DNA of 64,000 nucleotides from an uncultured Spirochaetota bacterium (GTDB lineage Bacteria > Spirochaetota > Spirochaetia > SZUA-6 > CAVTHK01), in NCBI GenBank assembly GCA_963734495.1, contig CAVTHK010000003.1:401318-465317 (forward strand), in the 5' to 3' direction. Made by a program: the position numbers and the translations under genes. Shown here in pieces: positions 5,570 through 43,339 of the stretch (its first letter is position 1; each line of letters begins with the position of its first letter). A model generated the notes under the pieces. That model had not been told where the DNA came from. It did not search any database and saw only the letters and a program-made list of their open reading frames with translations.

Positions 5570-5738
5570 CGACCGAACGCGGCGTCCAGTGCAATTCCTC
5601 GATTCTTGCTATGGCGCGCGGCAGCCACGTGCGCTGCTCTGTCAAGCTGGGTGCGATCGGCTGGGCTTCACCCTGAGAAAATCCAGGTCAGGTCCGCTGC
5701 CAATATCACAGACGGTCCCTTTCAGTGACTTCAATTGA

Positions 5739-10054: not shown

Positions 10055-10088
10055 CGCGCATCGTCGCGGTCCTCTGCTTCCGGCACGA

Positions 10089-12635
10089 TCACCGCTGCCA
10101 GAGGATGTGAGCGGCCTCCAGCGGCACCGCGACGCCGTGGTGGTGCGGTATCACTCGTGCCGTGTAGTCCGTCGCCGGGCGTGTCGCAGGCACGGTCGCG
10201 TAGTAGATGTACCCGTCGGCAGAATCTCCACGTTGCCGGTGGCGTCTCATCTCCTGGCGCGCCCGGCTGTGGCCGCCGAGCTCGTCGGCGTAGAGCTCGA
10301 CGCGCACCGCATCAGGGTCGAGATCACCGAGATAGACCCGCACTTCGAATGTGTGGTCCTGAGCGTCAGTCCTGACTTTTGCGTCGCCGAATCTCAGCGT
10401 AGCCCATTTCCGCTCCAGAGTGTGCCGCCAATCGACCACCCGCCTGGCCGCTGCGCCCTTATCGGCGGCGCGCTCACGGTAGGCTGCGGCAGCGGGGAGG
10501 TAGTGCTGCTCTGTGTATTCGCGCACCGTGCGGTCGGCGCAAAAGCGCGGCGTCAGCCGTGCCATGCTCTCACGCACGCGCCTCACCCAGGCGGCAGGAA
10601 TGCCCCTCTTGTCGCGGGCATAGAACTCGGGGATCACCTCGTTCTCGAGGAGCCGGTAGAGCTCTTCGGCTTCCGCGGCATCCCAGGCGGGATCATCGCC
10701 ATGCTCCTGTCCGTCACCCAACGCCCACCCCACCTCAGGCGAGTAGGCTTCCGCCCACCAGCCATCCAGCTCCGACAGATTGATGCCGCCGTTGACGAGC
10801 ACCTTCATGCCGCTCGTTCCGCTGGCCTCCCAGGGCCTCCGCGGCGTGTTGATCCAGACATCCACTCCTTGCACGAGGTGCTCGGTCAGAAGCATGTCGT
10901 AGTCACTGAGGAAGATCGCATGGGGACGCGTCTCGGGCCGCCGGATGAAGCGCGTCCATTCCTGGATCAAGGCCTGCCCCGCCTGGTCCGCCGGATGGGC
11001 TTTGCCGGCAATGATGAGCTGTACCGGGCGCTGAGGATCGGTCAGCAGGCGAAGCAGCCTCTGCGGATCGTGCAGCAGCAGGTTTGGCCGCTTGTATGTG
11101 GCGAAGCGGCGCGCAAAGCCCAACGTCAACGCGTTGGGATCGAACAGGCGCTTCGCCTCTTCTACCGATTCCCCGGTCGCACCGGACATGGTCAATTGAC
11201 GGGCCAGGCGTTCGCGCGCGTACTCAACGAGGGACGTCCGGGCGGTCGTCCGCATCCGCCACAGCCTGGCGTCAGAGACGCTGCGGATGTCTCGCTCCAG
11301 GGTTGTTTTCGTTCCCAGCCAGCGATCCTTTCCACAAGCCTCCATCCAGAGATCGTCGGCCGCAGCCGAATCCCAGCTCGGCATGTGGACTCCGTTGGTG
11401 ATGTGTCCGACCGGCACTTCGTCTTGCGGCCAGTTCGGAAAGAGGGGCTGCAGGATGCGGCGGCTCACCTTTGCGTGCAGGCGACTCACGCCGTTGACCG
11501 CCCCGCTCCCGCGGATCGCCAGATAGGCCATGTTGAAGCTTTCCGTCGGGTCGTTCGGGTCCCGGCGGCCAAGAGCCAGGAGATCCCGGAGTGTGATGCC
11601 GAGCTTTTTCTCGGCATAACCACCGAGGTATTGCTCGATGAGTGCTGGAGCGAACCGGTCGAAGCCTGCGGCCACCGCCGTGTGGGTGGTGAACAGGTTG
11701 CCCACCCGCGTGACGGCCAGCGCGACTTCAAAGGGCTGGCCGGTCGCCTGCATGAAGTCGCGGGCGCGCTCCAGCACGGCGAAAGCCGCGTGTCCCTCGT
11801 TCAGGTGACAGACCTCGGGTTGGATGCCCAGCGCCGAAAGCAGCCGCCATCCGCCGATCCCCAGTACGATCTCCTGCGTAAGCCGGAGCTCCGAGGTGCC
11901 GCCATATAGCTCACTGGTGATTCCCCGATGAACGGGCAAGCTCGCCGTGTCGTTACTGTCCAGGAGGTAGAGCCTTGCCCTCCCGACCTGAACCTGCCAG
12001 ACGCGCAGCCAGACCGAGTAGCCCGGCAACGGGATCTCCAACCGCAACCACTCTCCGTTCGGGCGGCGCAGGGGCGCGATCGGCAACTGGCCCGGATCGT
12101 TGTACGGGAAAAGACACTGTTGTGCACCTTCCTGGTCGATCCACTGGCGAAAATAGCCTTGCTGGTAGAGCAGACCCACGCCGATCACCGGCACGCCCAG
12201 ATCGCTGCAGGCCTTCAACTGATCGCCGGCCACGTTGCCGAGTCCTCCCGAGTAGATGGGGAGAGCTTCGCTCAGCATGAACTCCATGCTGAAATAGGCG
12301 ACGCAGGTCAGGGCTGATTGCGGGCAGGTTCGCTGAAACCACGCCGGTGCCTCGGCAGCCTGCCGCTTTTCCTGCAGCAGATCGTCGACGCTCTTTCGGA
12401 AACCGGGCTCGGCTGACACGCGCTCGATCTGGTCCCGGGAAACCGTCTGCAGAACGCCCCAGGGGTTATGCGTGAGCTCCCAGAGATCGGGATCCAGACG
12501 CCGCCAGACTTCGTCCGCCGCGTGATTCCACGACCAGCGCATGTCCAGGGCCAGCTCGGCCAGCGAGTCGAATCCCTCGACCTCCGCAGGCAGGAGACCG
12601 TATATCGGGTGGCTGACACGCCCGCGCTTGCTCAT
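10089..12635 (-). CDS. glgP: Alpha-glucan (glycogen/starch) phosphorylase
   Basis: 'YFSMEF...YSGGLGNVAGD', 'HLNEGHAAF', 'GFARRFATYKRP' and the PLP motif 'EASGTSGMK'. AAGGAG SD precedes ATG 12635. Confidence 0.96.
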   Translation of the reverse strand: MSKRGRVSHPIYGLLPAEVEGFDSLAELALDMRWSWNHAADEVWRRLDPDLWELTHNPWGVLQTVSRDQIERVSAEPGFRKSVDDLLQEKRQAAEAPAWFQRTCPQSALTCVAYFSMEFMLSEALPIYSGGLGNVAGDQLKACSDLGVPVIGVGLLYQQGYFRQWIDQEGAQQCLFPYNDPGQLPIAPLRRPNGEWLRLEIPLPGYSVWLRVWQVQVGRARLYLLDSNDTASLPVHRGITSELYGGTSELRLTQEIVLGIGGWRLLSALGIQPEVCHLNEGHAAFAVLERARDFMQATGQPFEVALAVTRVGNLFTTHTAVAAGFDRFAPALIEQYLGGYAEKKLGITLRDLLALGRRDPNDPTESFNMAYLAIRGSGAVNGVSRLHAKVSRRILQPLFPNWPQDEVPVGHITNGVHMPSWDSAAADDLWMEACGKDRWLGTKTTLERDIRSVSDARLWRMRTTARTSLVEYARERLARQLTMSGATGESVEEAKRLFDPNALTLGFARRFATYKRPNLLLHDPQRLLRLLTDPQRPVQLIIAGKAHPADQAGQALIQEWTRFIRRPETRPHAIFLSDYDMLLTEHLVQGVDVWINTPRRPWEASGTSGMKVLVNGGINLSELDGWWAEAYSPEVGWALGDGQEHGDDPAWDAAEAEELYRLLENEVIPEFYARDKRGIPAAWVRRVRESMARLTPRFCADRTVREYTEQHYLPAAAAYRERAADKGAAARRVVDWRHTLERKWATLRFGDAKVRTDAQDHTFEVRVYLGDLDPDAVRVELYADELGGHSRARQEMRRHRQRGDSADGYIYYATVPATRPATDYTARVIPHHHGVAVPLEAAHILWQR

Positions 12636-12943
12636 GGCCGCTCCTTGAAATGCCCGCAACGCTCGCCAGGCATCCTGGCCTGCCCTGACGAACAGTATAG
12701 CGAGCGATCGCCACCGTGGTCACCTCGAGTACCGAGCGGGACTTCCGGACGTGAGACGGCGTGCTGCCTCTCTGTTAACACTATCAGGGTGACTCCTTGC
12801 ACTCCTTACTGCCCTTGCTGGATACTGGAAGAGGTCGGGAGCCGTCCAGACGGTCGGGCGTACGGACTGAGACCAATCCTCAAAAGGCCCCGGCGTTGAC
12901 GCCTTGATGGCGGCGGTTCATGTTGCGGGCGGCGGAGGGACCG

Positions 12944-13426
12944 ATGGAAACAAGAGTTGGCGTGTGGATTGACCACAGAAAGGCCGTTGTCGTCGCCGTT
13001 ACGGATCAGGGCGAAACGACAACACTGAGACTGGTGGTGTCTAAAGTCGAAAAGCAGCCCGGACGTTCCGCGGGTGTCCGTTCCACGAGTCGCTATGAGT
13101 CACTGCAGGTGCCGGCGGATGATCGGCGTCAGAGGAGGTTCACGGGACAACTCAACCTCTACTATGATGCCGTAATCGCATGCGTTCGCGGTGCGCAGGC
13201 CATCCTGCTTTTTGGTCCCGGCGAGGCCAAAGGCGAACTGAAGACACGTCTCGAGAGGGACAAGTTGGGTGCGCACATCGTCGGAATCGAAACAATCGAC
13301 AGGATGACCGATCGCCAGATCGCAGCGAAGGTTCAACAGCACTTTGGACCACACGGTGGCGCGCAGGCGCAACGGACGAGGAAGCGTGCCGGGGACCAGC
13401 AGCCGCCGCGCCGGCGGGTGGGGTGA
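12944..13426 (+). CDS. baeRF/eRF1-domain-2 (host-attachment-like) protein
   Basis: 'VGVWIDHRKAVVV', 'ILLFGPGEAKGEL' and 'ETIDRMTDRQIAAKV'. GGAGG SD precedes ATG 12944. Confidence 0.7.
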   Translation: METRVGVWIDHRKAVVVAVTDQGETTTLRLVVSKVEKQPGRSAGVRSTSRYESLQVPADDRRQRRFTGQLNLYYDAVIACVRGAQAILLFGPGEAKGELKTRLERDKLGAHIVGIETIDRMTDRQIAAKVQQHFGPHGGAQAQRTRKRAGDQQPPRRRVG

Positions 13427-13511
13427 GAAGGCCGACGTCGTCCCCCGATTCGACGCCGGTCGGGCGGCGCAGAGGCGCGCCTCGAGAGTCGCGCATGAGG
13501 AGGCAGCAGGA

Positions 13512-13748
13512 ATGGAATTCTCCGAGAAGGTCTTGAGAGAAGCGTTCAGTCGATCCGGCGGACGATGCGAGTGCAGGCGTGCATCGCACCGCCATGGAGA
13601 TCAGCGATGCCCCAAGAACCTATCCTGGGCGCTGCACGGCAAGGACCCTGAAGGTTGGGCAGCGCACCACATCTCAGCCGAAGCCTCCGACACGGCCAGC
13701 AACTGCGAAATTCTGTGTTTTTCCTGCCTCAGGGCCACGTCCGATTGA
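13512..13748 (+). CDS. Small HNH-endonuclease-like zinc-binding protein, 78 aa
   Basis: 'AFSRSGGRCEC', 'WAAHHI', 'SNCEILCFSC'. CAGG/GAGG SD precedes ATG 13512. Confidence 0.65.
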   Translation: MEFSEKVLREAFSRSGGRCECRRASHRHGDQRCPKNLSWALHGKDPEGWAAHHISAEASDTASNCEILCFSCLRATSD

Positions 13749-13937
13749 TGCGCGGCTCCATTCATCGACGCCGCGCGGGGTGAGCCGCTCGCCTCGCTAC
13801 TACTTCTTCTTCATTCAGGACAGCCCGACTATCATCGCCAGGCCTTTCGGCAAGCGGGGCGGCCGGGTCGGCGGGCCGGGCGACACCCGATGACGCTCGA
13901 GGCTTGACTTCGCGCCGGGGGCTGGCGACCTTTGCGC

Positions 13938-14312
13938 ATGGCTCGAAAGCTCAACCCGCTCACCCGCGAAGAGGAGCGGGTCATCGTTCACAAGGGCACC
14001 GAAAGGCCGTTCACGGGCGAGTATGTCTCCTCCAAGGGGAAGGGCACCTACGTGTGCCGCAGGTGCGAAGCGCCCCTCTACCGCTCCGAGGACAAGTTCG
14101 ATTCGCACTGCGGCTGGCCGAGCTTCGACGACGAGATCGCCGGCGCCGTCAAGCGTACCGTCGACGCGGACGGGGAGCGGACCGAGATCACCTGCGCGAG
14201 CTGCGGGGGTCATCTGGGTCACGTGTTCCTGGGCGAGGGCCTCACCGCAAAGAACACCCGGCACTGCGTGAACTCGCTGTCGATGAAGTTCGTGCCCGAC
14301 GCGAAGGCGTGA
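13938..14312 (+). CDS. msrB: Peptide-methionine (R)-S-oxide reductase MsrB
   Basis: '[11 protein letters not shown]', CxxC pairs, 'GWPSF', 'HLGHVF' and 'RHCVNS'. Confidence 0.96.
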
Positions 14313-14385
14313 GCCGCCGCGCCTCCGGCGCGCGCGCTTCACCTTGCCCCGCCTCCGTGCTACCGTCCGGGCGGTGGAGGCTGCG

Positions 14386-15141
14386 ATGTTCGACGTGACA
14401 GGAAAGATCGCCCTGGTGACCGGCTCGAGCCGCGGGCTGGGCCTCGTCCTCGCCCGCGGGCTGGCCCGCGCCGGCGCGCGCGTCGTCCTGAACGCGCGCG
14501 ACCGCGAGCGCCTGGAAGGGGCGCGGCGCGCTCTGGAGGCAGAGGGCTTCGCGGCCGCCGCGAGCGTCTTCGACATCACCGACGAGGCCGCCGTGAGCAG
14601 GGCGGTGAGCGCCGTCGAGGAGGACGTCGGCCCCATCGACATCCTGGTGAACAACGCCGGCATCCAGCACCGCGCGCCGCTCGAGGAGTTCCCCGAGGAG
14701 CAGTGGCGGAAGATCCTGGACGTCAACCTGACCGGTGCGTTCATCGTGAGCAAGCACGTGGCCCGGCGCATGATCGCGAGGCGCCGCGGCAAGATCGTCA
14801 ACATCTGCTCGCTCCAGAGCGAGCTCGGGCGGAAGACCATTGCGCCCTACGCGGCCTCCAAGGGCGGGCTCAAGATGCTGACGCGGGGCATGGCGGTGGA
14901 CTGGGCGCAGCACAACATCCAGGTCAACGCGATCGGTCCCGGCTACTTCATCACGGAGATGACGAAGCCGCTGGCCGAGAACCCCGAGTTCGACAAGTGG
15001 TACCGCGCGCGAACGCCTTCGGGCCGCTGGGGGGATCCCGAAGAGCTCCTGGGCGCGCTGCTGCTGTTCTGCTCGCCGGCGTCGGATTTCATCAACGGAC
15101 AGCTTCTGTTCGTCGACGGGGGCCTCAGCGCCGCGATCTGA
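14386..15141 (+). CDS. idnO: SDR oxidoreductase, gluconate 5-dehydrogenase (IdnO/KduD-like)
   Basis: TGSSRGLG, NNAGIQHR, YAASKGG, 'NAIGPGYF' and 'RTPSGRWG'. GGAGG SD precedes ATG 14386. Confidence 0.85.
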   Translation: MFDVTGKIALVTGSSRGLGLVLARGLARAGARVVLNARDRERLEGARRALEAEGFAAAASVFDITDEAAVSRAVSAVEEDVGPIDILVNNAGIQHRAPLEEFPEEQWRKILDVNLTGAFIVSKHVARRMIARRRGKIVNICSLQSELGRKTIAPYAASKGGLKMLTRGMAVDWAQHNIQVNAIGPGYFITEMTKPLAENPEFDKWYRARTPSGRWGDPEELLGALLLFCSPASDFINGQLLFVDGGLSAAI

Positions 15142-17783
15142 GCCGGACCGGCTCCTCCGCTCCTCGCGTGATCAGCTTCCGGACCTCCATCCAGAAAGTG
15201 CCGGCGACCGGCGCCGCGAGCGCCAGGGCCCATTGGGTGCCGCTCAAGCCCGCGGTCCTGAGCACGGCGTGCAGCGGGGGCGCGAGCACCGCGAGCAGCG
15301 CGAACAGCCGACGCGGCGGCGCCCCAGGCCAGCAGCATCCGGTTGGAAAAGACCCCTATGCGCGCGAGCGGCGTGCGGACCGAGCGCATGTTGCAGGCGA
15401 GCAGCACGTGGCCCACGAGCCAGCTCACGAAAGCGACCGTGTGCGCCTGCGGCCGGAGTGCCGCCGCCGTACCACGTGGCGAGGTACGCGGCCGTGACGG
15501 CGGCAAACAGCCCGGCCGCCGAGGCGAAGATGCTCGAGACCATCCGGCCGTCCATGAAAGGGCGCCTCGGGTCGCGCGGCGGCCGTTTCATCACGTCGCC
15601 CTCGCCCGGCTCGGACACGAACGTCGCCGAGGCGGCCAGGTCCATGAACAGCTCCATCACGATGATCTGGATCGGGGCGAACGGGACCGGGACTCTCAGC
15701 AGGATCGGCACGAGCGTCGCCGACACGAGCGCCACCTTGCAGGCGAGGTAGTAGCGGATCGCCTTGGAGAGGTTCTCGAAGAGGACGCGGCCTTCCGAGA
15801 CCGCGTTCGCGATGGTCGCGAAGTTGTCGTCGGCGAGCACCATGTCGGCGGCCTCGCGCGCGACGTCGCTCCCCGATTCGCCCATCGCGACGCCGATGTC
15901 CGCGGCCGCGAGCGCGGGGGCGTCGTTGACGCCGTCCCCGGTCACGGCGACCCGCTCGCCCCGCGCGTGCAGGGCGTCGACGATGCGCAGCTTGTGCTCG
16001 GCTGTGGCGCGCGCGTAGATGGAGACCTCGGCCGACAACGCGACCAGCTCGCCGTCGCTCACCTTGTCCAGCTCGGCGCCCGAAAGCACCCGTCCTTCGC
16101 CGTCGAGCCCGCACTCGCGCGCCACCGCCCGGGCGGTCGCGGGATGGTCGCCCGTGATCATCAGGGTGCGGATGCCCGCGGTCCTGCAGCTTTCGATGGC
16201 GCCCTTGACTTCCTCGCGGGGCGGATCCGCGAAGCCGATGAGGCCCGCGAAAGAGAGGTCCGCCTCCGCCGCCTCCGCGGAGGCGGAGCGCGCGGGCGCT
16301 TCCGGGCCGGCAAGCCTTCGCGAAGCGAGAGCGATGACACGCAGCCCGCGCGAGCCCATCCGCGCCGCCTCCGCGAGAAAGCGCCGCCTTGTCGTCGGGC
16401 GAGAGAGGGATCTCGCCGGCAGCGTCGACCTTCAATTTTGACTTCTCCAGGATGGCCTCGGGCGCGCCTTTCGCGGCGATCAGGACGCCGTCGGGCGCCG
16501 CTCGCACCACGGACATGCGCTTGCGGCCGGCATCAAAGGAGTGCTCGCGGAGCAGGGGACGGGAGGCGTGCAGCGCCCCGGCATCGATGCCGCCGGCGCG
16601 GGCCCGGGCAAGGACCGCCGCCGCCATCGGGTCGGAAGACGGCCTGTTCCCCTCGCCGGCGATCCCCATGGTGAGCACGGCGAGCTCCAGGAGTCGCGTC
16701 GCGTCCGCGCCCGGAGAAAGCGCCCCGACAGCCATCCGGTTCTCGGTGAGGGTCCCGGTCTTGTCGGTCGCGATCACGGTCACGGCGCCGAGCGACTCGA
16801 CCGCGGAAAGACGCTTGACGATCGCGCGCTTCTTCGAGAGACGCCAGCCTCCCAGCGCGAGGACCATGGTGATGATGATGGGGAGCTCCTCGGGGATGGT
16901 GGCGAACGCCATGGACAGTCCCGTGAGGAGCATGTCCTTCGGAGGCTCGCCGCCGACCACGATGCCCAGGAGGGGTATCAGCACGCTCAGCCCGAGCGCG
17001 AGCGCCACCATCGACCGGCTCAGCTCCGCCATCGCCTTCTGCAGAGGGGTGCGCGGCTCCCTCACGCGCTGCGCCAGCTCCGCCACGCGGCCCAGCTCCG
17101 TCGACATCCCGGTGCTCACGATCGCGGCGGTCCCGCCTCCCCGCAGCACGAGGCTTCCGGAGAACACCATGTTGCGCCGCTCCGCCAGGGGCGTGTCCGC
17201 ATCCAGGACGGCGGCGGCCATCCTTGTCGACGGGCATCGATTCGCCGGTGAGCGATGATTCGTCGACCGCCAGACCGCGGGCCGCGAGGAGCCGGGCGTC
17301 CGCCGGGACGCGGCGGCCCGCCTCGAGGGCGACCACGTCGCCCCGAACGAGCCGCTCCACCGGCAGCTCCCGCCACTCGCCGCCGCGAAGGACGGGCGCG
17401 CTCGGCTCCGAGAGCTTGCGCAGCGAGCGGATCGCCTGTTTGGCCCGCTGCTCGTTCCAGACCTCCACGGTGTTGAGCAGAAGGATGACCGCGAAGATGA
17501 CGATGGCGTCGCTCAGCTCGCCCCAGACCGCGTACAGGACCCCCGTTGCCAGGAGCAGCAGGATGAGGGGCTCCTTGAGCTCCTCGAGGAATTCCTTCCA
17601 GAACGGCTCGTGCTTCTCGATCCGCAGGGTGTTCGCGCCCTCGGTCTCCAGGCGCGCCGCGGCCGCCTCCTCGGCGAGGCCGCGCTCCGCGTCCGTCGCG
17701 ACGCGGCCGATCGCATCAGCGGCCGAAAGCGCGTGCCAGCACGCGCCGGCGTCGCGGTCGCGGGACGTCCGTTCCGGTTTCAC
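15125..17783 (-). CDS. Cation-transporting P-type ATPase (type II, Ca2+-like), interrupted by about 4 frameshifts (~17218, ~16378, ~15453, ~15315)
   Basis: Pieces lie in successive frames: 'DESSLTGES', 'IPEELP', DKTGTLT, 'KGAPE', 'DPPR', 'MITGD' and 'TGDGVNDAPAL'. The inferred stop TGA is at 15127-15125. Confidence 0.9.
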
Positions 17784-18571
17784 GGCGCGGCCCCTCTTTC
17801 ACGGATCAGGCGCAACACGTGATCGACGACGGGCCGGTCGGCGGACGAGATCGCCGGTCCCAGCAGCGTCGCCGTCTCTTCGTACAGGCTCAACCCCGCC
17901 TCGACCTGCCGCGCGAGCGGCGCACACGCACCGGCGGCTCCCGCATCGCCCGTGTCCATGGCGAACGCTTGCCGCGCAAGCGTCGACCAGCGCGAGTCGC
18001 GCCCCAGGGCCTCGATCACATCGAGGACGCAGGTGTTGTCGCCGCGGACGAGGATGCCGCGCTGCACCCGCATCGCCTTGCAGAGGAGCCACGAAAGCCC
18101 GAAGGCGGAGTTGAGCAGCCGCCCCGGGTCCCCAGACCGCAGGCCCTGCAGCCCCTTCAGGACCTCCTCGGCCAGCCCCGCGAGCATCCGCGACGCGTAC
18201 GAATCGGCCGCCCGCTGCAGGCGATCGTCCCAGGCGAACGCCAGCGCGCGGGCGCGAACGCTCTCGAAGTCGCCCCACGGGTCCCACAGCGACACCGCGG
18301 TCCGGACGCCCGCGATGCACTCGGTCGCCTTTGCCGGCGCGGTGAACCACTGCTCGACGTTGTCCGCTCCGACTTCGCTCACGACCAGCAGGCGCCCGTC
18401 GTGCACCTCGAGGGCAGGCTCGCGGGGGACTCGATCGACGAAGCAGACGAGGTCAATGTCGCTGCAGGGCGTGGCATCGCCGCGCGCGTAGCTTCCCATC
18501 AGCGCGATCGCCCGCACGCCGTCGCGGCCGGAGAAGCGCAGCACCAGCGGCGCGGTATCCATCCGCATCAT
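17780..18571 (-). CDS. Nucleotidyltransferase-domain protein (KNTase/ANT(4')-like two-domain layout)
   Basis: Pol-beta NTase motif 'GSYARGD...SDIDL' plus a helical C-terminal domain. It overlaps both neighbours by 4 nt. Confidence 0.8.
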   Translation of the reverse strand: MMRMDTAPLVLRFSGRDGVRAIALMGSYARGDATPCSDIDLVCFVDRVPREPALEVHDGRLLVVSEVGADNVEQWFTAPAKATECIAGVRTAVSLWDPWGDFESVRARALAFAWDDRLQRAADSYASRMLAGLAEEVLKGLQGLRSGDPGRLLNSAFGLSWLLCKAMRVQRGILVRGDNTCVLDVIEALGRDSRWSTLARQAFAMDTGDAGAAGACAPLARQVEAGLSLYEETATLLGPAISSADRPVVDHVLRLIRERGAAP

Positions 18572-19260
18572 GCCTCACCCCGGCTCGTTGCCTCGCCGTC
18601 CAGGCGAACCGACCGCCCGAGAGACCACAGAGCGACCGACCCGCCGCGGCGAAGGAGCGCGACCGAGTCCAGGTAAGCCGGAACGCCCACGTCCTCGTGG
18701 CGGAGGCCGAGATAGCGCTCGCGCAGCAGCATCAGGTTCCAGTCGTGCGTCACGGCGACCGTCACCGGGGATGGCGAATCCTCGAGCCGGCGCAGCGCTT
18801 CCTTGATCTCGAAGGCGGCAGCCTCGGCCAGCGGCGCGATCAGGCCCGAAGAGTACCTGCCGTCGAACCACGCGCGCAGGAACGCGTCCGGCCCGCGGGC
18901 GGCGATCTCTTCGTTGACCCACTGCGCCTCGCCGCCGATGAAATCGCCGCCCAGCCAGCCCAGCGGCCCCTCCATGCTCGCGGCGCCTCCGGATTCCGCG
19001 GCGCCTCCCGCGAGCAACTCCGCCGTCTCGCGGCAGCGCGGGATCGGGCTGTGCCACACGGCGGCGCGTCCGAAGCGCGCGCCGATGAGCCTGCCGAGGG
19101 CGCGGGCGTCGAGACGGCCCTGCTCCGTCAGCATCACCGAAGCATGCGTGCGGATGTCGGTCACCTCCGCGCGCTCGGCATGCCGCATCAACAGCACCAT
19201 CCGGTCGAAGGGCGGGATCGCGGCGATCGACGAGCAGCGAAGAGCGGCCGGCGAGCTCAT
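18568..19260 (-). CDS. Histidine phosphatase superfamily protein
   Basis: 'LLMRHAER', 'HSPIPRCRETA' and 'VTHD'. Start taken at ATG 19260. Confidence 0.85.
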   Translation of the reverse strand: MSSPAALRCSSIAAIPPFDRMVLLMRHAERAEVTDIRTHASVMLTEQGRLDARALGRLIGARFGRAAVWHSPIPRCRETAELLAGGAAESGGAASMEGPLGWLGGDFIGGEAQWVNEEIAARGPDAFLRAWFDGRYSSGLIAPLAEAAAFEIKEALRRLEDSPSPVTVAVTHDWNLMLLRERYLGLRHEDVGVPAYLDSVALLRRGGSVALWSLGRSVRLDGEATSRGEA

Positions 19261-19265
19261 CGCGC

Positions 19266-20090
19266 CTACTCGTCCGCCATCACGACGCGGAAGCCCGCCC
19301 AGTCCTCCGGCTCCTCCGGCCCGAGGCGCACCCTCGCGGCCGAGCGGCACACGTCCGGCGGGTCGTGCCAGCAGCCTCCGCGCAGCACGCGCGAGTCCTT
19401 CTCCTTGCTCTTTCCGGCCGCCCGCGCGGTCCAGGCGCTGCCGTCGGCCGGCGCGCCGTCGTAGCTCTCGTGCCACCGGTCCTCGCACCACTCCCAGACG
19501 TTGCCGTGCATCTCGCACAGGCCGAAGGCGTTAGGCGGCAGCGAGCCGACTTCGACGGTCGCGTGCCGGTACTCGCCCGTCGGCTCGAGGGCGTAGGTGT
19601 GGAGCCCGACGTAGTTGGCCAGCTCCGTCGTGAGCGTCGGCCCGTACGCGAACGGCGTCGTCGTCCCCGCGCGGCAGGCGTACTCCCACTGCGCCTCGGA
19701 CGGAAGCGAAACCGCCCTTCCGATCTTCGCCGTAAGCGCCTTGCAGAACTCGTTCGCGGCAATCCACGACGTCCTGTCCGCCGGGAGCCGAGCGCCCTTG
19801 CAGCGATACGGCGGCGACCAGCTCATCACGGAGCCCCACTGCTCCTGCGTCACCGCGTACCTGCCGATCCGGAACGCGGCGACAGCGACCCTGTGCTGCG
19901 GCCGCTCGTCGTCGTACCCCGTGCGGCCCGGCGATCCCATCGCGAGCTCGCCCGCGGGGACGCGCACCATCTCCAGCTCCGCCCGCCCGAGGTCGAAGAC
20001 CATCCGCTCGGCGGACAGGACCGACCGCCGGACCACCTTCCCATGGTCGTCCAGGAAAGGAACTTCAAAGGTGAAGGTCTCCGCCGTCAT
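19266..20090 (-). CDS. Formylglycine-generating enzyme family (SUMF1/FGE-sulfatase) domain protein
   Basis: 'AMGSP...DERPQHRV', 'YAVTQEQW', 'LPSEAQWEYACRAG', 'PNAFGLCEMHGNVWEWC', 'RGGCW' and 'GFRVV'. Confidence 0.9.
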   Translation of the reverse strand: MTAETFTFEVPFLDDHGKVVRRSVLSAERMVFDLGRAELEMVRVPAGELAMGSPGRTGYDDERPQHRVAVAAFRIGRYAVTQEQWGSVMSWSPPYRCKGARLPADRTSWIAANEFCKALTAKIGRAVSLPSEAQWEYACRAGTTTPFAYGPTLTTELANYVGLHTYALEPTGEYRHATVEVGSLPPNAFGLCEMHGNVWEWCEDRWHESYDGAPADGSAWTARAAGKSKEKDSRVLRGGCWHDPPDVCRSAARVRLGPEEPEDWAGFRVVMADE

Positions 20091-37051: not shown

Positions 37052-38789
37052 CTACTTCTTGGCCGCGACGTTCTTCGCGGCATTGCGCAGCTTGAAGGAG
37101 CCCGAGGGGAAGATCTCGACGCCGTCGATGTTGGTCTGGGCGGCCGAGAGGCCCATGATGGCCACCAGCGGCACGCGCGGGAGGTCCTTGAGGACCTGCC
37201 TGGCCGCGCTCTGGTAGGCGGCGTTGCGCTCCGGGCCGTTCGGCAGCGAGTTGCCCTTGTCGATCCCCTGCTGCGCTTCCTTCGTGTAGTACTTGGTGTC
37301 GTGCAGCAGAGAGGTGTTGAAACCGTCGAAGGCGACAAAGATATAGTAGGAGTCGTCCGTCTGCGTCCAGTTCACCAGAAGGTCCCAGACCTTCGGGTCG
37401 GTCTTGCTGCGCCGCGTCGCGAGCTCCGACAGGGCGACCTGCTCGATCTCGACGAGGTCGACGCCGAGCGCCTTCTTCACCTGGTCCTTGACCACGAGGG
37501 CTTCCTTGACGTAGGTGCTGCCCGAAAGCGCCGTCAGCCTGAGCGAGCTGGGCGCCTTGAGCGCCGCCGGCAGCGTGTCGAAGATCTCCTTGGCCTTCTT
37601 CGGGTTGTAGTACCCGGTCTGGTCGTTGCCTTCCTCCATGCGGGTGCCCTTGGCATCCGTGATGCGGCCGAACGGCAGGGTCTCGACGTACTGCAGCGTC
37701 ACCTTGCCGCGCTTGTCCATGATGTCGGGCGAGTTGACGATGTCCGACGGGTTGATCGAGTACAGGATCGCGTTGCGGAGCTTCGCGCTGCTCGCATTGA
37801 GGTCGTACTCGCCGTCGTTGTCGGGTGAGCCGTCGGGCCTGACCTGGCCGACCCTGGGCGAGTTCATGTTGAAGGCGAGGTAGTGGTAGCCGAAGTAGCC
37901 GTTGGTCGTAAGGATCCGCGCTCCCTGCTTCTCGATCTCGCGGGCGTCGAGAGGCACCACGTTCATGATCAGGTCGACTTCCTTGTTCATGAACGCGGTC
38001 TTGAGCGCCGACGGGTCCTTGATCGTCTTGAACACGATCTTCTCAGCGTTCGTCTTGAGCGTCTTGTCCCAGCAGTCGGGGTTGCGCTTGAGCGTGACGT
38101 TGTCGCCCTGGGTCCAGGACTCGAATTTGAAGGGGCCTGTCCCGACCGCGAAGGTGATGCCGTAGTCCTTGAGCGTGCCGTCGGCCTGGGCCTTCTCCAT
38201 CGTCTCCTTGTCCACGATCGAAGCCCCGAGCCACGTGAGCTGGTTGAGCTGCGACCCGAACGAAACCGGCGCGTAGTACCTGGCGCGGTCCGCCGCGCTC
38301 TTGAGATCGGAGTCCTTGGTGCCCGCGGGCGCCTTGGCCGCGTCGAGCTTGCCGGTGCGGAAGCTGAAGGTCATGTCGTCGATCTTCTGGATGTCGTACA
38401 TCATGGCGAAGATCGACTTCATCTGGCTCTTCTCGTGGAAGCCGCCGCGCTGGAACGAGTAGATCACGTCGTCGATGGTGAGCTTGTTCCCGTTGTGGAA
38501 CTTGACGCCGTCCTTGATCCTGATCGTGTACCGGGTGCCGTTCTCGTCGATCTTCGGCATGTCGGCGGCGAGGCCCGGGCTCGATCGTGCCGTCCTTGGT
38601 GAGCTCGTACAGCCGGTCGTAGATCAGCAGGTTGACGTTGTGCGTCGGCGTGTCGCTGTACATCGGCGGGTCCAGGATCACCGGGTCAGTGCCCTGGCCG
38701 ACGACGATCGTCAGTGGCTGTTTCGTGCCGCCGGCGCATCCCAGCAGGACTGCAGCCGCGACGATCGAGACGACCATCAATCTTTTCAT
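37052..38789 (-). CDS. oppA: Peptide ABC transporter substrate-binding lipoprotein (family 5), frameshift near 38576
   Basis: Lipobox 'LLGC', 'LDP' and 'IYDRLYEL' are in one frame. 'IKDGVKFHNG', 'VGTGPFKF' and 'YLAFNM' are in the next. GGAGG SD precedes ATG 38789. Confidence 0.9.
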
Positions 38790-38842
38790 TTCCTGACCTC
38801 CTCTTGCGTGCGAAGAAACCATCTTAGACCACCTGCGGTAAG

Positions 38843-38851
38843 TGGTACAAT
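38843..38851 (+). promoter_or_regulatory. Extended -10 element TGGTACAAT, possible promoter of the 39048 operon
   Basis: TGn-TACAAT in the oppA/39048 divergent intergenic region. Confidence 0.35.
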
Positions 38852-39047
38852 CCGATGGAGGCGGCTCCAGGCGGCTCCACCTGCGACGCAGCCGAGGCCA
38901 GAGTCGGTCTGTCGACATCCGAAATGGCGGTGCAAGCTTGATCTTTTGGAGATTATGTGCATTGCTCGATGTACAGAGGCGAGGTGTTCCCAGACGTGGG
39001 ACGTTGGTCTTGCGGTGGGGTTATTGAACGTGAGGGACGGGGCCCGC

Positions 39048-39986
39048 ATGGAGCAACTGGATCTGCTGCAGGCCGCAGGGACGGACCTGAGGCCTGCATC
39101 GCTGGATTCCCTCGAGTTGACCATGGACCTCGGGGACCTGGCGATCGCCGGCAAGACCGAAGAGACCTTTGACGATCTGATCGCCGGAGAACAATACCGA
39201 AAGGGTAATCTACCTCCGCTGCAGGCCTGCCGTCGGGCCCTGCGTCCGGGCGGCGTCCTCACCCTCACGAATCCCCATCACCCAGCAGACCTCGAGCCCT
39301 ACCTGGATCTGCAGCAGATGCTGCTGAACGCGGCGGGCTTTGTCGGCGTGACCGTCAAGAGCAGACAACCGATCGTCGTGCAGGCGACAGTGCGGCCGCC
39401 GGTGGCCGAGGAGTACGAGCACGGGATGGTTCTGCGGGAGATCATTGACCCCGTCGAGATCCTCGCCTGTCACGAGTTCGCGCGCGAGCTCTACTACTAC
39501 AAGGACTTCAACTATGACCTGGACGTGGTCAGGCAGTTCGACGCGCACGCGGCCATGGGAGCGGTCTACGACCACGCCGGGCGGACCATCGCGGTCGGCC
39601 GCGTGGTCCTGAGGGTCCCCGGGCACAACTGCCCGTTCATGTACGCGATCGAGGACGATGGAGCGCACTACGAAGTCCCCGCCCGCTTCCGCCGCATCTG
39701 CGAGGTCATGGGGTTGTTCAAGGAAGGCCACAGCGGCGTGATCGCGTTCAAGCGGCTGCTGGAGTACCTGACGCAATACGCCTACTACATCGCCGGCGTC
39801 GACAGCATCTGGACGACCTACGACGCGAACGACCCCTTTACGGGCAGCTACTACAAGAGCAAGCTGCTGATGCGGGAGGCCGGGGTCAGGCTGACCTACC
39901 GGGACTTCGGAGGCAAATGGAACCTGATATGGACCGACAGAATCCAGGAGCTGCGCGATCTGCATCGGGATATGTTCAGAAGGTAA
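39048..39986 (+). CDS. Two-domain protein: degenerate SAM-methyltransferase-like N-part plus LuxI/FeeM-like (GNAT-fold) acyltransferase C-part
   Basis: N-part has 'RALRPGGVL' and 'LLNAAGF'. C-part has 'ARELY..', 'QFD', 'AVGRVV', 'CPF', 'ICE' and 'YYKSKLLM..AG'. Start at ATG 39048 after GAGGGA. Confidence 0.55.
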   Translation: MEQLDLLQAAGTDLRPASLDSLELTMDLGDLAIAGKTEETFDDLIAGEQYRKGNLPPLQACRRALRPGGVLTLTNPHHPADLEPYLDLQQMLLNAAGFVGVTVKSRQPIVVQATVRPPVAEEYEHGMVLREIIDPVEILACHEFARELYYYKDFNYDLDVVRQFDAHAAMGAVYDHAGRTIAVGRVVLRVPGHNCPFMYAIEDDGAHYEVPARFRRICEVMGLFKEGHSGVIAFKRLLEYLTQYAYYIAGVDSIWTTYDANDPFTGSYYKSKLLMREAGVRLTYRDFGGKWNLIWTDRIQELRDLHRDMFRR

Positions 39987-41941
39987 GGGCCTTTCTGAAC
40001 GAGGGCCTCCCGCAGTCCGGCGATCTGCGCGAGCAGTACCTCCGCCAGCAGACCGACTCGCTCACGCGGGTCAACCGCGTCGGGGCGTGGCTCGCGACGC
40101 TCCTCGTGGCCTACCTCACCTGGTTCTCCGATCCTGTCGCGTTCCCCGAGTACGCCCCCCAGATGTTCGTGGGACGCATGTACGTGATCGTCCCGGGGGT
40201 GATCGTCATCGTCCTCACGTTCATCCCGGCGCTCCGCCGCTACGGCGTGCTTCTGTCGTTCTTTGTCTATCTCGGCCCCGCGCTGATGATGGCTCACCTC
40301 ACGGCGGTGATGGACAACCACTTCTCGGATGTCGTCGCCTGGACCTTCGTGAACATCATCTTCTGCGGCATCTACCCGCTCCCGCTGCTGTACTCGGCCG
40401 TGGTCGTCCTCATCTCGACAGCCTACTACATCGCGACCTACCTGATGTCCGGCTTCCTGCCGGACCTGGACTTCCGCATGGTGCTCGTCAACGAGCTGAG
40501 CGCCGCCCTGATCACGCTGTTCTTCAAGATCGGAATGGAGCGGGTGCGCAGGCGCGAGTTCGTGTTCCGCATCGGCCTGGAGCGGGCCAACAAGGAGATC
40601 GCCGAGCTCAACGACAAGCTCAAGGACGAGAACCTCCGCCTCAGCCACGAGATCGAGATCGCCCATCACATCCAGAGCATCGTGCTGCCCCAGGAGCGGG
40701 ACTACCAGGCGTTCCGCGACCTGGAGATCTCCTGCCAGATGCTCCCCGCGGCGGAGGTGGGGGGCGACTACTTCGACACGATCCACTTCGGCCCGGACGG
40801 GTTCATCGCGATCGGGGACGTGACCGATCACGGCCTGCACTCCGGGCTCATCATGATGATGGTGCACACCGCGCTGCGCGCCCTGAGCAATGTCGAGCGC
40901 AACGACATCCAGCGGGTCTTCCGCGTCATCAACAAGCTCCTGTACGATTTCCGGCTCAAGACGCAGGACCACCGGATCATGTCGCTGATCATCCTCAAGT
41001 ATCTCGGCGACGGCGAGTTCGTCATGACGGGCCAGCACGAGTCGCTGCTGATCCTCCGCAAGGACGGCACCGTGCAGGACATCGAGTCGCTCGAGTACGG
41101 CATGTACGCGGGGCTGGACGCCAACATCTCGCCCTACCTCAGGCTCCTGAGCTTCCGGCTCGACGTCGACGACGCCCTCGTGCTCTACACGGACGGGGTC
41201 ACCGAGGCCGTCGACGAGCACCAGAGGGCCTTTGGCAGGGAGGGCATCATCGAGGCCGCGCTCGCGGTCAGGACCTCGTCGGCGGACACGATCCGCACGG
41301 CGATCCTGGACGCCTGCCAGAGGCACATCGGGACCGGCCGCCGCTTCGACGACATCTCCATCCTCGTCGTGCGGAGGCAGCAGGACCGCGGCTGGGACGG
41401 CGTGCTCAGCGGCACGATCCATGTCGGCGACAAGATCGATCTGGAGGAGAGCGTCGAGACATCGTTCACCGTGCGCTTCCTGCCCCTCGACATGTTCGAC
41501 AACTGGCAGCGGGGCAGCGTGCTCTCCAACTTCACCGCCGAGTACTTCAGGCACAATTTCCCCGCCGAAGCCGACAGCGGGCTGATCTCGACGGTGGTGA
41601 ACGAGCTGGTCGAGAACGGCGCGAAGTTCTCGGCGAACAACTCGCTCCCGGTCGAGCTCACGCTGAAGAAAGCGAGCACCCGGCTTCTGGTGCGCGCCAC
41701 CAACTCGGTGCCGCACCACCGGTGCGAGCCTTTCATGAACGTCTGCCGCCAGCTCTTCGAACGGAACCTGGACGAGCTCTACGTGGAGCGGATCGCCGAG
41801 GACACGGAGCATCGCGAAGCCTCGGGTCTCGGCCTGCTGCTGGTCAAGAAGGACTATTGTTCCCGGCTCAGCTTTGATTTTCGTTTTGACGAAGATGATA
41901 CAGTACAGGTCTCGGTCACCGCGGAGCTCGCGTTCCGGTGA
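39917..41941 (+). CDS. Membrane (about 6 TM) PP2C/SpoIIE phosphatase fused to a C-terminal slr1658/DUF6272-like HATPase domain
   Basis: TM block, coiled coil 'ANKEIAELNDKLKDENLRL', PP2C motifs 'EVGGDYFD', 'GDVTDHG', 'YTDGVTEA', 'DDI', then 'STVVNELVENGAKFS'. The start codon is uncertain because it overlaps the upstream gene. Confidence 0.88.
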   Translation: MEPDMDRQNPGAARSASGYVQKVRAFLNEGLPQSGDLREQYLRQQTDSLTRVNRVGAWLATLLVAYLTWFSDPVAFPEYAPQMFVGRMYVIVPGVIVIVLTFIPALRRYGVLLSFFVYLGPALMMAHLTAVMDNHFSDVVAWTFVNIIFCGIYPLPLLYSAVVVLISTAYYIATYLMSGFLPDLDFRMVLVNELSAALITLFFKIGMERVRRREFVFRIGLERANKEIAELNDKLKDENLRLSHEIEIAHHIQSIVLPQERDYQAFRDLEISCQMLPAAEVGGDYFDTIHFGPDGFIAIGDVTDHGLHSGLIMMMVHTALRALSNVERNDIQRVFRVINKLLYDFRLKTQDHRIMSLIILKYLGDGEFVMTGQHESLLILRKDGTVQDIESLEYGMYAGLDANISPYLRLLSFRLDVDDALVLYTDGVTEAVDEHQRAFGREGIIEAALAVRTSSADTIRTAILDACQRHIGTGRRFDDISILVVRRQQDRGWDGVLSGTIHVGDKIDLEESVETSFTVRFLPLDMFDNWQRGSVLSNFTAEYFRHNFPAEADSGLISTVVNELVENGAKFSANNSLPVELTLKKASTRLLVRATNSVPHHRCEPFMNVCRQLFERNLDELYVERIAEDTEHREASGLGLLLVKKDYCSRLSFDFRFDEDDTVQVSVTAELAFR

Positions 41942-41953
41942 GGCAATAGGGGA

Positions 41954-42295
41954 ATGGAAGACACATCAGCGGCCTACGCGGTCCGGGTGACGCGGGATTT
42001 CTCGAGGATCTCGTTCAGCGGCACCCTGCGCCTGCAGGGCAGGCAGGAGTACGAAAAGATCTACCGGATGCTCCGGTACGCCGCGAACAAGTCGGGCGAG
42101 AGCCTCGAGATCGACCTGAGGCAGCTGCAGTTCCTCAACAGCTCGGGCGTCTCCACCTTCAGCCTCTTTATCATCGAGATGCGCGAGGTCGGCAAGAAGC
42201 TGTTCATCACCGGGAACAAGCTCGTCGCCTGGCAGAGCAAGTCGCTCGCCAATTTCAGGCGGCTCTACGACAAGGTCGTGGTGAACCTGGTGTGA
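41954..42295 (+). CDS. slr1659-like STAS (anti-anti-sigma-type) protein
   Basis: 'FSGTLRL', 'IDLRQLQFLNSSG' (phospho-acceptor Ser) and 'WQSKSLANFRRL'. Confidence 0.85.
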   Translation: MEDTSAAYAVRVTRDFSRISFSGTLRLQGRQEYEKIYRMLRYAANKSGESLEIDLRQLQFLNSSGVSTFSLFIIEMREVGKKLFITGNKLVAWQSKSLANFRRLYDKVVVNLV

Positions 42296-42364
42296 AAGGG
42301 ACGCCGGCCGGAGGCGATCCGGTTGCGGTCCGGTTGCGCCCCGCCGCGCAGCCGGAGCCCGCCC

Positions 42365-43339
42365 TCACCGGCTCTCGATGAACTTGATCGCCTTGCGCAG
42401 GTCTTCCAGGATGCGCCCCTTCTCGACCGCGCCGACCGAATCCGGCTCGTAGTAGAGCTGCCGCAGCAGGAAGCCGTTGCCGAACTCCTCGTAGTGCGGC
42501 TCGCGCGTCTCTCCGCCCGCCCGCAGGCCGATGATCTTGTAGACCTTGACCGGGAAGTGGATGCCCTTGACTTCGGTAATCTGGGGCCCTTCGACCTCCA
42601 CCATGTCCTTGACCAGGGCGTAGGTCGACTCGCTGATGAAGATCGAGTCGCGGTCCGCGATCTTCTCCAGGCGCGCCGCTATGTTGACCTGGCCCCCGAT
42701 GATCGTGTAGCCCATGCGCTGCTCGGAGCCGAAGTTGCCCACCGTGCAGTAGCCCGTGTTGATGCCGATCCTCAGCGCCAGGCCGTTGGCCGCGCCGGCC
42801 GCCCGCCACTTCCCGCTGAGCTGCTTGACCTTTTCGAGCATCTCGACGGCCATGCGGATGCAGCGCCTGGCGTGGGTCTCGTCGTCGATGAACTGCGGAT
42901 CGCCGAAGAAGATCACGATGGCATCGCCGATGAACTTGTCCACCGTGCCGCCGTAGACGCCCGCGATCGCCGACATCTCCGTGAGGTACTCGTTGAGGAG
43001 CGACGAAAGGGTCTCGGCCTCGAGGGTGTCCGTGACCTCAGTGAACCCCACGATGTCGGAGAAGAACATCGTCAGCTTCACGCGCTTGTGGGTGAGCTTG
43101 GGGCTGAGCTCGCCCCGCATGATCGAGTCGTAGACCTGCGACGGGAGGTACATCTTCATCAGCGTGAGCAGATGGTTGATGTGCTGGTTCTTGCCCTCGA
43201 GCTCGTTCTCGACCACCGTGCCGTGCTCGACCATGTTCTCGTACATGATCTGGAGATCGTTCAGGCGCGCCCTGAGCTTCGCCGCCTCCCCGCCTGTGAT
43301 CGGCGCCCCCGATCCGTTTCCGCTCTTCGACTCGGACAT
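42365..43339 (-). CDS. Soluble class III adenylate/guanylate cyclase with short N-terminal coiled coil
   Basis: 'FFSDIVGFT', 'DKFIGDAI', 'RIGINTG', 'YTIIGGQVNIAARLE'. The N-terminus reads 'DLQIMYENMVEHGTVVENEL'. GGAG SD precedes ATG 43339. Confidence 0.92.
   Translation of the reverse strand: MSESKSGNGSGAPITGGEAAKLRARLNDLQIMYENMVEHGTVVENELEGKNQHINHLLTLMKMYLPSQVYDSIMRGELSPKLTHKRVKLTMFFSDIVGFTEVTDTLEAETLSSLLNEYLTEMSAIAGVYGGTVDKFIGDAIVIFFGDPQFIDDETHARRCIRMAVEMLEKVKQLSGKWRAAGAANGLALRIGINTGYCTVGNFGSEQRMGYTIIGGQVNIAARLEKIADRDSIFISESTYALVKDMVEVEGPQITEVKGIHFPVKVYKIIGLRAGGETREPHYEEFGNGFLLRQLYYEPDSVGAVEKGRILEDLRKAIKFIESR

Follow-up and report, generated by a model that had tools for sequence, protein, structure and literature searches.

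Small STAS or STAS-like proteins that act on nucleotide cyclases have been described in bacteria. In the SiaABCD system of Pseudomonas aeruginosa the membrane PP2C phosphatase SiaA and the kinase SiaB set the state of the small STAS-like protein SiaC, which activates the cyclase SiaD (PMC8457831, PMC7647112); when unphosphorylated, SiaC attaches to the coiled-coil stalk of SiaD at conserved motifs and stabilizes its active dimer, and phosphorylation at T68 prevents this binding (PMC8457831). In the BgrRSTUWV system of Sinorhizobium meliloti (Baena et al., 2019, Environ Microbiol 21:3379, as cited in PMC7647112 and PMC8457831), the phosphatase/kinase couple BgrU/BgrW sets the phosphorylation of BgrV and thereby controls the diguanylate cyclase BgrR, according to the account given in PMC7647112. 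The same two sources (PMC8457831, PMC7647112) present HsbR-HsbA-HsbD of Pseudomonas aeruginosa as a further case where a STAS protein acts on a nucleotide cyclase. Here we consider a locus of four genes, which we name g1 to g4, lying at positions 39048-43339 of a stretch of 64,000 nucleotides (the window: positions 401,318 to 465,317 of contig CAVTHK010000003.1, assembly GCA_963734495.1) in the genome of an uncultured Spirochaetota bacterium, and which appears to combine a switch of this kind with an adenylate cyclase and with an enzyme of a new family.

The first three genes are close-packed on the forward strand and the fourth is convergent to them, just as the first-pass annotation of this DNA had laid them out. 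The enzyme gene g1 (39048-39986, +) codes for a two-domain protein of 312 residues that belongs to a new family without Pfam or NCBIfam model; g2 (39917-41941, +) codes for a protein of 674 residues that joins a transmembrane (TM) part, a PP2C phosphatase and an slr1658-type GHKL domain; g3 (41954-42295, +) codes for an slr1659-type STAS protein of 113 residues, and g4 (42365-43339, -) for a class III cyclase of 324 residues. We propose, with what we feel to be an even chance of being right in all its parts, to understand this cassette as a self-contained slr1658/slr1659 partner switch, Bgr-type and Sia-like, with cyclic AMP (cAMP) as its output and with g1 as the probable enzyme for its ligand.

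The switch proper is the part of this proposal that we hold most firmly: judging from their conserved motifs, the PP2C, slr1658 and slr1659 modules very probably make up a partner switch. The phosphatase module of g2 (residues 236-500, 40622..41416, +) matches the PP2C/SpoIIE family PF07228 over residues 297-487 (E 4.5e-27, 95.7 bits for a cut-off of 25), and its metal motifs GGDxxD, GDVTxHG and YTDG are kept in 28 orthologues. It is followed on the same polypeptide by an anti-sigma-kinase-like GHKL domain (residues 505-674, 41429..41941, +), which the slr1658 superfamily model NF047703 recognizes over residues 511-670 (111.2 bits, cut-off 100) and in which neither the N-box NELxENAVKF nor the G2 box SG(I/L)GL varies. 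The predicted phospho-acceptor, encoded over the whole of g3 (41954..42295, +), scores 106.2 bits with the slr1659 superfamily model NF047705 (cut-off 100), and 26 orthologues all show the motif FLNSSG(I/V)S; we take FLNSSG to be the counterpart of the DSSG motif around Ser58 of SpoIIAA, which designates S63 as the predicted phospho-serine. All this agrees with the first-pass annotation, which had read in these two genes a membrane PP2C of about six TM helices fused to an slr1658-type domain and an slr1659-type STAS protein, and in their combination a likely phospho-switch triad. The fusion of phosphatase and slr1658 domain is confined to close relatives; elsewhere there are two genes. What weighs against an active kinase is that the canonical G1 box DxGxG is absent from the slr1658 domain, a conserved xNS(V/I)P standing in its place, and that a profile of the domain reaches solved GHKL domains at E ~0.3 only, so that its putative kinase activity rests on homology with the Bgr type; the published BgrU/BgrW couple speaks for slr1658-type proteins being genuine kinases in spite of this odd box.

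Ahead of these modules, g2 begins with a membrane part (residues 1-235, 39917..40621, +) made of about six TM helices connected by very short loops, then a coiled-coil linker. Hydropathy delineates five strong TM segments and a weaker one, with loops of 1-10 residues, and conserved residues, polar or other, lie inside the membrane segments (N53, R54, D72, R87, W142, P154 and N192). A Pfam search with this domain returned no family.

As far as sequence similarity tells, the switch backbone of the window is homologous to the U/W/V triad of the Bgr type. The path to this assignment goes through a related cassette of a Spirochaetales metagenome-assembled genome (MAG), L050, considered below: full-length homologues of its STAS::methyltransferase protein, at 34-35% identity, lie on 123 plasmids, which are rhizobial with few exceptions, 80 being from Sinorhizobium. 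On a plasmid of Ensifer adhaerens (L051) one finds a GGDEF gene, a gap, then genes for a STAS::methyltransferase, a dCache-HAMP-PP2C, an slr1658-like and an slr1659-like protein; this record carries no annotation and the bgr gene names are inferred there. In a tblastn comparison with L051, identity is 38.6% for the PP2C domain (E 3e-53), 29% for the GHKL domain (E 8e-8) and 37.5% for the STAS protein (E 2e-17). Both systems encode a PP2C phosphatase (BgrU), an slr1658-type kinase (BgrW), an slr1659-type STAS protein (BgrV) and, within the cluster, a nucleotide cyclase. They differ in that this cyclase is a GGDEF diguanylate cyclase in Bgr and a class III adenylate cyclase here, that the sensor is of the dCache-HAMP type in Bgr whereas it is a six-TM intramembrane domain here, that phosphatase and kinase are fused in the window, and that the S/T pair of Bgr (a kinase-like protein and a STAS::methyltransferase) is replaced by g1.

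The resemblance with SiaABCD is one of logic, and the window is not a member of that system: the SiaA model reaches 17.5 bits for a cut-off of 700, and g3 has no SiaC/DUF1987 match at E<=0.01. SiaABCD ends on a cyclase for cyclic di-GMP (c-di-GMP) and has no accessory enzyme, whereas the window has a class III cyclase and g1. HsbR-HsbA-HsbD differs by its receiver-domain input via a phosphorelay, by its diguanylate cyclase output and, again, by the lack of an accessory enzyme; HsbR carries a PP2C phosphatase and an anti-sigma-type kinase on one polypeptide, as does g2.

Turning to the cyclase, the Guanylate_cyc family (PF00211) is found on g4 at E 4.3e-28 (98.6 bits), and the catalytic domain (residues 86-270, 42530..43084, -) matches CyaB of P. 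aeruginosa (3r5g) at E 4.1e-58. Every orthologue keeps the metal-binding Asp of FSDI and of IGDA, the substrate lysine of DKF, the YTIIG threonine and the asparagine and arginine of VNIAARLE, and since this threonine marks class IIIb adenylate cyclases we place g4 in that class. Neither the Pfam search nor the alignment revealed a sensor domain, and a cyclase that is catalytically intact without sensor domain makes regulation in trans plausible. The catalytic domain is preceded by a coiled-coil stalk (residues 1-85, 43085..43339, -), which by analogy with how SiaC attaches to the SiaD stalk is a candidate docking site for the STAS protein, and it is followed by a tail (residues 271-324, 42365..42529, -) where a GF-x-L...Y/F-D...E pattern is conserved across phyla. 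Within the stalk, H39, E44, L47 and N51 (residues 39-51, 43185-43225 of the window) are invariant across phyla, which is unusually strict for a purely structural coiled coil; since a cyclase with no cassette around it (L048) keeps them as well, they do not speak specifically for docking. The family of compact, sensor-less cyclases of ~325 residues to which g4 belongs has >7,400 homologues.

That this cyclase is the output of the partner switch seems to us likely, for reasons that come mostly from gene neighbourhood. We gathered from public genomes and metagenomes 25 loci with a g1 homologue, spread over Spirochaetales, Leptospirales, Leptonemataceae, Sediminispirochaeta, KSB1 and Myxococcota MAGs. 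In all 25 the order g1, six-TM domain, PP2C, slr1658, slr1659 is the same and the flanking genes are unrelated, and one order kept in 25 independent loci with unrelated flanks is an arrangement far beyond chance. A close g4 homologue is adjacent in 20 of the 23 loci having enough downstream DNA, convergent in Spirochaetota and KSB1 and co-directional in two Myxococcota loci, the three exceptions being of Leptospirales type, two (L023 and L034) with a doubled sensor/kinase/STAS set and one (L031) with a second g1 ahead of a second slr1658 gene; moreover, over the loci, the identity of the cyclase to the copy of the window tracks that of the PP2C and of the STAS protein (r 0.96-0.97). The reverse test, starting from the cyclase, considered the contexts of four homologues at 47-51% identity, three of which sit in SpoIIE/slr1658/slr1659 cassettes of other lineages, Bacteroidota included. 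The co-occurrence on which the first-pass annotation had staked its reading is therefore retrieved from either end. The reading of the cyclase as output draws on this adjacency, on the tracking of identities and on the reverse test, as well as on a further locus of the same genome (L036, contig 11: 558000-577000), where a second slr1658/slr1659 pair (9558-10166 and 9205-9561, -) lies directly downstream of a GGDEF gene (10170-10832, -), so that the same organism links such switches to a c-di-GMP cyclase too. L036 also holds a divergent pair of HATPase_c_2 and SiaC-like genes at 12686-13556 (+).

The cassettes reached from the cyclase differ in architecture from that of the window. In a Chitinophagales MAG (L047, 2939-7975), co-directional genes code for a 478-residue protein, a TM-SpoIIE phosphatase, slr1658 and slr1659 proteins, a compact cyclase and MazG. 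The 478-residue protein joins a FeeM-like N-terminal domain (PF21926, E 1.6e-5, 25.1 bits for a cut-off of 27) to a complete S-adenosylmethionine (SAM) methyltransferase; its domain order is opposite to that of g1, with which it has no sequence similarity, and homology between g1 and its FeeM-like domain was discarded (hhalign Prob 0.08%). In an unlabelled metagenome contig (L049, 7001-13065) and in L050 (7001-13035) one reads, in this order, a cyclase, an slr1658-like protein, an slr1659-STAS::methyltransferase, a dCache-HAMP-SpoIIE phosphatase, slr1658 and slr1659, the kinase being fused to the phosphatase in L049. These two cassettes are of the Bgr type, with the S/T pair and the dCache-HAMP sensor, but an adenylate cyclase replaces the diguanylate cyclase. 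The fourth cyclase homologue, from Methylacidiphilales (L048), has no cassette within 7 kb. We conclude that the link between cyclase and switch holds across lineages and architectures, and that an additional enzyme, GNAT or methyltransferase, recurs in such cassettes. At one of the loci with a g1 homologue (L012), two tandem cNMP_binding-GGDEF genes (3746-5700) lie 2-4 kb upstream of the module, and these could be a route from cAMP to c-di-GMP.

The enzyme g1 is the truly new element. All 95 homologues carry the label 'hypothetical'; g1 has no Pfam or NCBIfam match, even at E<=10, none of 40 family members submitted to Pfam has any match, models of GNAT, FeeM and LuxI included, and a sequence search of the PDB with g1 profiles gave chance matches only. 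An exhaustive search of 1.84 billion representative proteins with a hidden Markov model of g1 recovered only 48 clusters. The predicted structure is more telling. The AlphaFold model (pLDDT 90.6, pTM 0.88) has a C-terminal domain (residues 121-312, 39408..39986, +) of GNAT fold, with 200 Foldseek matches in the PDB at E<=1e-3 and a probability of 1.00 to many GNATs. The best E-values, 1e-6, go to SpeG-type GNATs; the top TM-score normalized by the query (TMq) among the 50 matches listed goes to FeeM (2g0b; TMq 0.42-0.43, and 0.69-0.70 when normalized by the target, TMt), with a small margin over the other GNATs listed (TMq 0.36-0.42). The GNAT fold anticipated by the first-pass annotation is indeed there, and its description of g1 as LuxI/FeeM-like stands at the level of the fold but fails at that of sequence. 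FeeM and the LuxI synthases share their GNAT-like fold with the C-domain of g1; in contrast with them, g1 has an extra half methyltransferase domain and no significant sequence similarity. On its predicted structure g1 is a GNAT-fold protein resembling FeeM and LuxI, membership of either family not being demonstrable.

The N-terminal domain of g1 (residues 1-120, 39048..39407, +) is predicted to be the C-terminal half of a class I SAM-methyltransferase fold. When residues ~19-115 are modelled alone, the 50 Foldseek matches listed are almost all class I methyltransferases or methyltransferase-like folds, among them Kmr, Bud23 and the N-domain of anamorsin (TMq 0.42-0.50, TMt 0.2-0.3), the low TMt telling that a part of the methyltransferase fold is covered. 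Strands 4-7 alone are present and the SAM-binding motif I, GxGxG, is absent, so that the domain is not a full class I SAM methyltransferase. An alignment by hhalign with the methyltransferases associated with such modules is weak (Prob 10-25%) although in the expected region, and we did not retain a descent of this domain specifically from those of the Bgr type. As for the active site, even relatives at 20% identity keep E131, R185, E219, T257 and Y284 unchanged, which argues that it is a working one. The position of the GNAT pyrophosphate loop Q/RxxGxG/A reads KEGHSG in g1, with G227 and G230 kept in the close clade only, and the acyl-CoA loop motif is not conserved among distant relatives.

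Is g1 then the maker of a ligand for the six-TM sensor, as the first-pass annotation had proposed? We advance this tentatively, as a reading that falls somewhat short of an even chance. Pairs of this sort are familiar: in CqsA/CqsS, LuxM/LuxN, RpfF/RpfC and PhcB/PhcS the gene of a cytoplasmic enzyme lies beside that of a polytopic sensor without large periplasmic domain, and PhcB, a SAM methyltransferase, produces a fatty-acid methyl ester as signal. The CqsS-, LuxN-, RpfC- and PhcS-type sensors are histidine kinases, whereas the transmitter in the window is a PP2C/kinase partner switch. A closer analogy is offered by RsbQ of Bacillus subtilis, an enzyme-fold protein encoded beside the PP2C phosphatase RsbP, which is needed to activate RsbP and probably supplies or processes a ligand; RsbQ is an alpha/beta hydrolase, RsbP has a cytoplasmic PAS domain, the output is sigma-B, and the two proteins are not homologous to the system of the window. 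In genomes of the same order, the six-TM domain and g1 occur in the same three of 41, the TM domain directly downstream of g1, when slr1658-type proteins occur in 21 of the 41; enzyme and membrane sensor thus co-occur strictly, and they are adjacent in 25 of 25 loci. Taken together, g1 and the six-TM sensor go specifically with each other, on a switch backbone that is itself more common. They are also the parts that diverge fastest, the mean identity to the window being 50% for g1, 48.5% for the TM domain and 65% for the PP2C domain. Strict co-occurrence, gene overlap, the fast evolution of both partners and the FeeM-like fold all point to a ligand maker, as does the presence of a FeeM-like GNAT-methyltransferase in the same first cassette position of L047.

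The same reading draws on the company kept by distant relatives of g1 (20-26% identity), which have no PP2C, STAS or cyclase gene nearby. In five metagenome loci a g1-like gene is directly followed by that of a HisKA_7TM sensor histidine kinase (~690 residues), with a receiver gene adjacent, and of the four loci that include upstream DNA, three have ahead of it a gene for a FadL/TodX outer-membrane channel for hydrophobic compounds. On the basis of sequence, the enzyme family of g1 accompanies polytopic membrane sensors of two transmitter types, without detectable relationship between them. Metagenome contigs L037-L044 (for example L039, 1510-6937) hold a cassette of receiver, FadL/TodX channel, g1-like enzyme and HisKA_7TM-(GAF)-histidine kinase, where the enzyme often has an N-terminal PilZ domain and a fuller methyltransferase-like domain; this has the look of a distinct system, not yet described, in which an enzyme and a sensor deal with a hydrophobic compound.

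Several observations weigh against this view of g1. Sequence does not place it among the LuxI-type synthases of acyl-homoserine lactones (PF00765), hhalign with a profile of LasI (its sequence verified against PDB 1ro5), TofI, BjaI and RpaI giving Prob 0.6-3.9%; the alignment is co-linear, R185, P196-F-M and E219 of g1 standing opposite R-ILDTTGPYM and WELS of LasI, and it is not significant. Nor does g1 belong to the sequence family of FeeM (PF21926), which matches none of the 40 members. A common origin of the six-TM domain of g2 and of HisKA_7TM receives Prob 0.6% from hhalign. Near the main-clade loci we find no FadL, 7-TM kinase or receiver genes, nor any exporter. Finally, three findings that make g1 look like a part of the switch rather than the source of its signal must be set against it: a Leptonemataceae MAG (L031, 13373-14907) has a second, diverged g1 (33% identity) followed by a second slr1658 gene, with neither a second sensor, phosphatase nor STAS; the sister cassettes L049 and L050 fuse the slr1659 STAS protein directly to a methyltransferase; and the ~500-residue relatives of g1 carry one N-terminal PilZ domain each, without any Pfam GNAT match, which suggests a regulated enzyme there.

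The alternative that fares best, while rather unlikely in our judgement, takes up these very findings: the slr1658 domain would hold g1, dephosphorylated STAS would displace it, and the six-TM domain would sense an unrelated membrane cue, so that the switch would have two outputs, the acyltransferase activity of g1 and the cAMP made by the cyclase. The duplicated pair of L031 and the STAS::methyltransferase proteins of L049, L050 and L051, which wire an enzyme straight into the switch with an extra slr1658-like protein adjacent, would fit such an arrangement, and the half methyltransferase domain, which cannot bind SAM canonically, could serve for docking. The PilZ domains of distant relatives would put the enzyme under a second messenger, and there is a published precedent for this in PixB of Myxococcus xanthus, a PilZ-GNAT effector responding to c-di-GMP (PMC8316039). 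PixB, as well as the cAMP-regulated Rv0998 of Mycobacterium tuberculosis, are GNATs under the control of a cyclic nucleotide, as the PilZ-bearing relatives of g1 may be; they are nevertheless conventional GNATs detected by Pfam, whereas neither a cNMP-binding nor a PilZ domain is present in g1 itself. Rv0998 is one of the fold matches of g1, with a poor root-mean-square deviation of 8.8-10 Å, and homology of PixB with the PilZ-fused relatives was rejected, PixB having a Pfam-detected GNAT and two PilZ domains. An enzyme that is the output of the switch leaves unexplained, however, why g1 is strictly paired with the six-TM domain (three genomes of 41) and not with slr1658 generally (21 of 41), and why its distant relatives lie beside 7-TM kinases and FadL channels. 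Besides, g1 has no STAS domain, and in L023 and L034 (~10900-19500) the TM-PP2C/slr1658/slr1659 set is doubled behind a single g1, with no cyclase, which gives two sensor/kinase/STAS sets for one enzyme. A protein of ~860 residues without Pfam domain follows the doubled set in both loci.

It is also conceivable, yet improbable, that g1 is a sensor of the metabolic state or a pseudo-enzyme, which would bind acyl-CoA or acyl-ACP and signal to the sensor-phosphatase by contact, with no released product. The degenerate half methyltransferase and the lack of a clear canonical pyrophosphate loop, with its GxxG in the close clade only, would then be natural, and the overlap of g1 with g2 suggests a translational coupling that perhaps fixes the ratio of the two proteins; against this, the five polar residues invariant down to 20% identity are typical of a working active site, and the FadL genes near distant relatives point to a small hydrophobic molecule crossing the outer membrane. 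Least probable of all is the idea that the cyclase is a conserved neighbour acting in parallel, the switch targeting a sigma factor, g1 or something else: the cyclase is missing from the 10 kb of flanking DNA considered in three Leptospirales-type loci, the stalk motif cannot serve as a mark of cassette-linked cyclases since the cassette-free cyclase of L048 has it too, and the genome has ~14 other class III cyclases, but the cyclase is adjacent in 20 of 23 informative main-clade loci and in three further cassette architectures with varying orientation, neither a sigma factor nor any other candidate target recurs beside the cassette, g4 lacks a sensor domain of its own, and homologous and analogous switches act on nucleotide cyclases, as summarized in PMC8457831 and PMC7647112.

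We may now return to the partner switch with cAMP output and g1 as ligand enzyme, and outline how it could work; we infer which proteins interact, which way the signal runs and what g1 catalyses from the sequences, predicted structures and gene neighbourhoods of uncultured organisms, every carrier of the cassette being an uncultured MAG. The six-helix domain, having no extracytoplasmic part, would sense an intramembrane signal and set the balance between the PP2C and slr1658-kinase activities of g2, which would fix the phosphorylation of g3 at the predicted S63. In one phosphorylation state, most likely without phosphate, g3 would bind the coiled-coil stalk of g4 and alter the activity of the dimer, hence the synthesis of cAMP, as SiaC and BgrV do with diguanylate cyclases. 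The product of g1 would most likely be a hydrophobic acylated small molecule, made or processed by the enzyme and sensed by the six-helix domain, and it could work within the cell, in the manner supposed for RsbQ and RsbP, or as a shared autoinducer. The more daring version of the latter, in which g1 and the six-TM PP2C are synthase and receptor for a membrane-partitioning acylated autoinducer relayed to cAMP by a Ser-phosphorylation partner switch, we regard as doubtful.

The surroundings of the cassette deserve a few words. The window belongs to contig 3 of a MAG of 5.38 Mb, at ~70% GC and with an estimated completeness of 83%, the nearest relatives of which in public collections are Spirochaetota MAGs. 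The start of g1 is confirmed by its 95 full-length homologues of ~310 residues, which begin at the same Met; g2 overlaps g1 by 70 nucleotides, or by 58 if the second ATG is the start, since its frame offers no start codon other than ATG 39917 and ATG 39929. Between ~36000 and ~43500 the GC content is ~61-66%, and it is 68-73% on both sides of this block, which exceeds the four genes and includes upstream peptide ABC-transporter genes; the first-pass annotation, which had placed the cassette between GC-richer genes, was right for the downstream flank and wrong upstream, where the low-GC block reaches back to ~36000. With g1 present in one genome of the 301 sampled over the phylum, and in three of 41 within the same order, the module is rare and patchy, and the cassette was probably gained by horizontal transfer. 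No riboswitch or other known RNA was found in the region, and no sigma-70-like promoter; terminator-like matches sit within genes and are uninformative. Divergent from g1, a family-5 solute-binding protein gene (37052-38918, -) is broken over two frames near 38560-38575, its N-terminal lipoprotein part lying in the open reading frame 38043-38918 and the remainder in 37052-38560; either a frameshift has turned the gene into a pseudogene or the assembly is wrong there. A cNMP-binding gene of the Crp family (5106-5357), 34 kb upstream of the module, is one of ~15 in the genome, and these cNMP-binding proteins, together with ~14 class III cyclases, tell that cAMP signalling is extensive in this organism.

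What is new in this combination, which the first-pass annotation thought had not been described, has to be delimited with some care. Partner switches acting on nucleotide cyclases are published, as far as PMC8457831 and PMC7647112 relate SiaABCD, HsbR/HsbA/HsbD and BgrSTUWV/BgrR; what appears new is the adenylate cyclase output, the enzyme family of g1 and its strict pairing with a six-TM intramembrane sensor. A limited literature search returned no paper on a partner switch controlling a class III adenylate cyclase, and no mechanistic work on slr1658/slr1659 or DUF6272. Partner switches are known for sigma factors and diguanylate cyclases, and a class III cyclase as target would join Ser/Thr phospho-switching to cAMP. 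This may explain how the widespread 'input-less' cyclases of ~325 residues are regulated, three of the four sampled being found in cassettes. With g1, the FeeM-methyltransferase of L047 and the STAS-methyltransferase proteins, small-molecule-modifying enzymes come to be seen as regular parts of such switches. Were g1 and the six-TM sensor to form an autoinducer pair, this would be a new architecture of cell-cell signalling, dispensing with both histidine kinase and LuxR-type receptor, and the same enzyme superfamily would provide the synthase for 7-TM histidine kinases in other phyla, with FadL channels as the route through the outer membrane.

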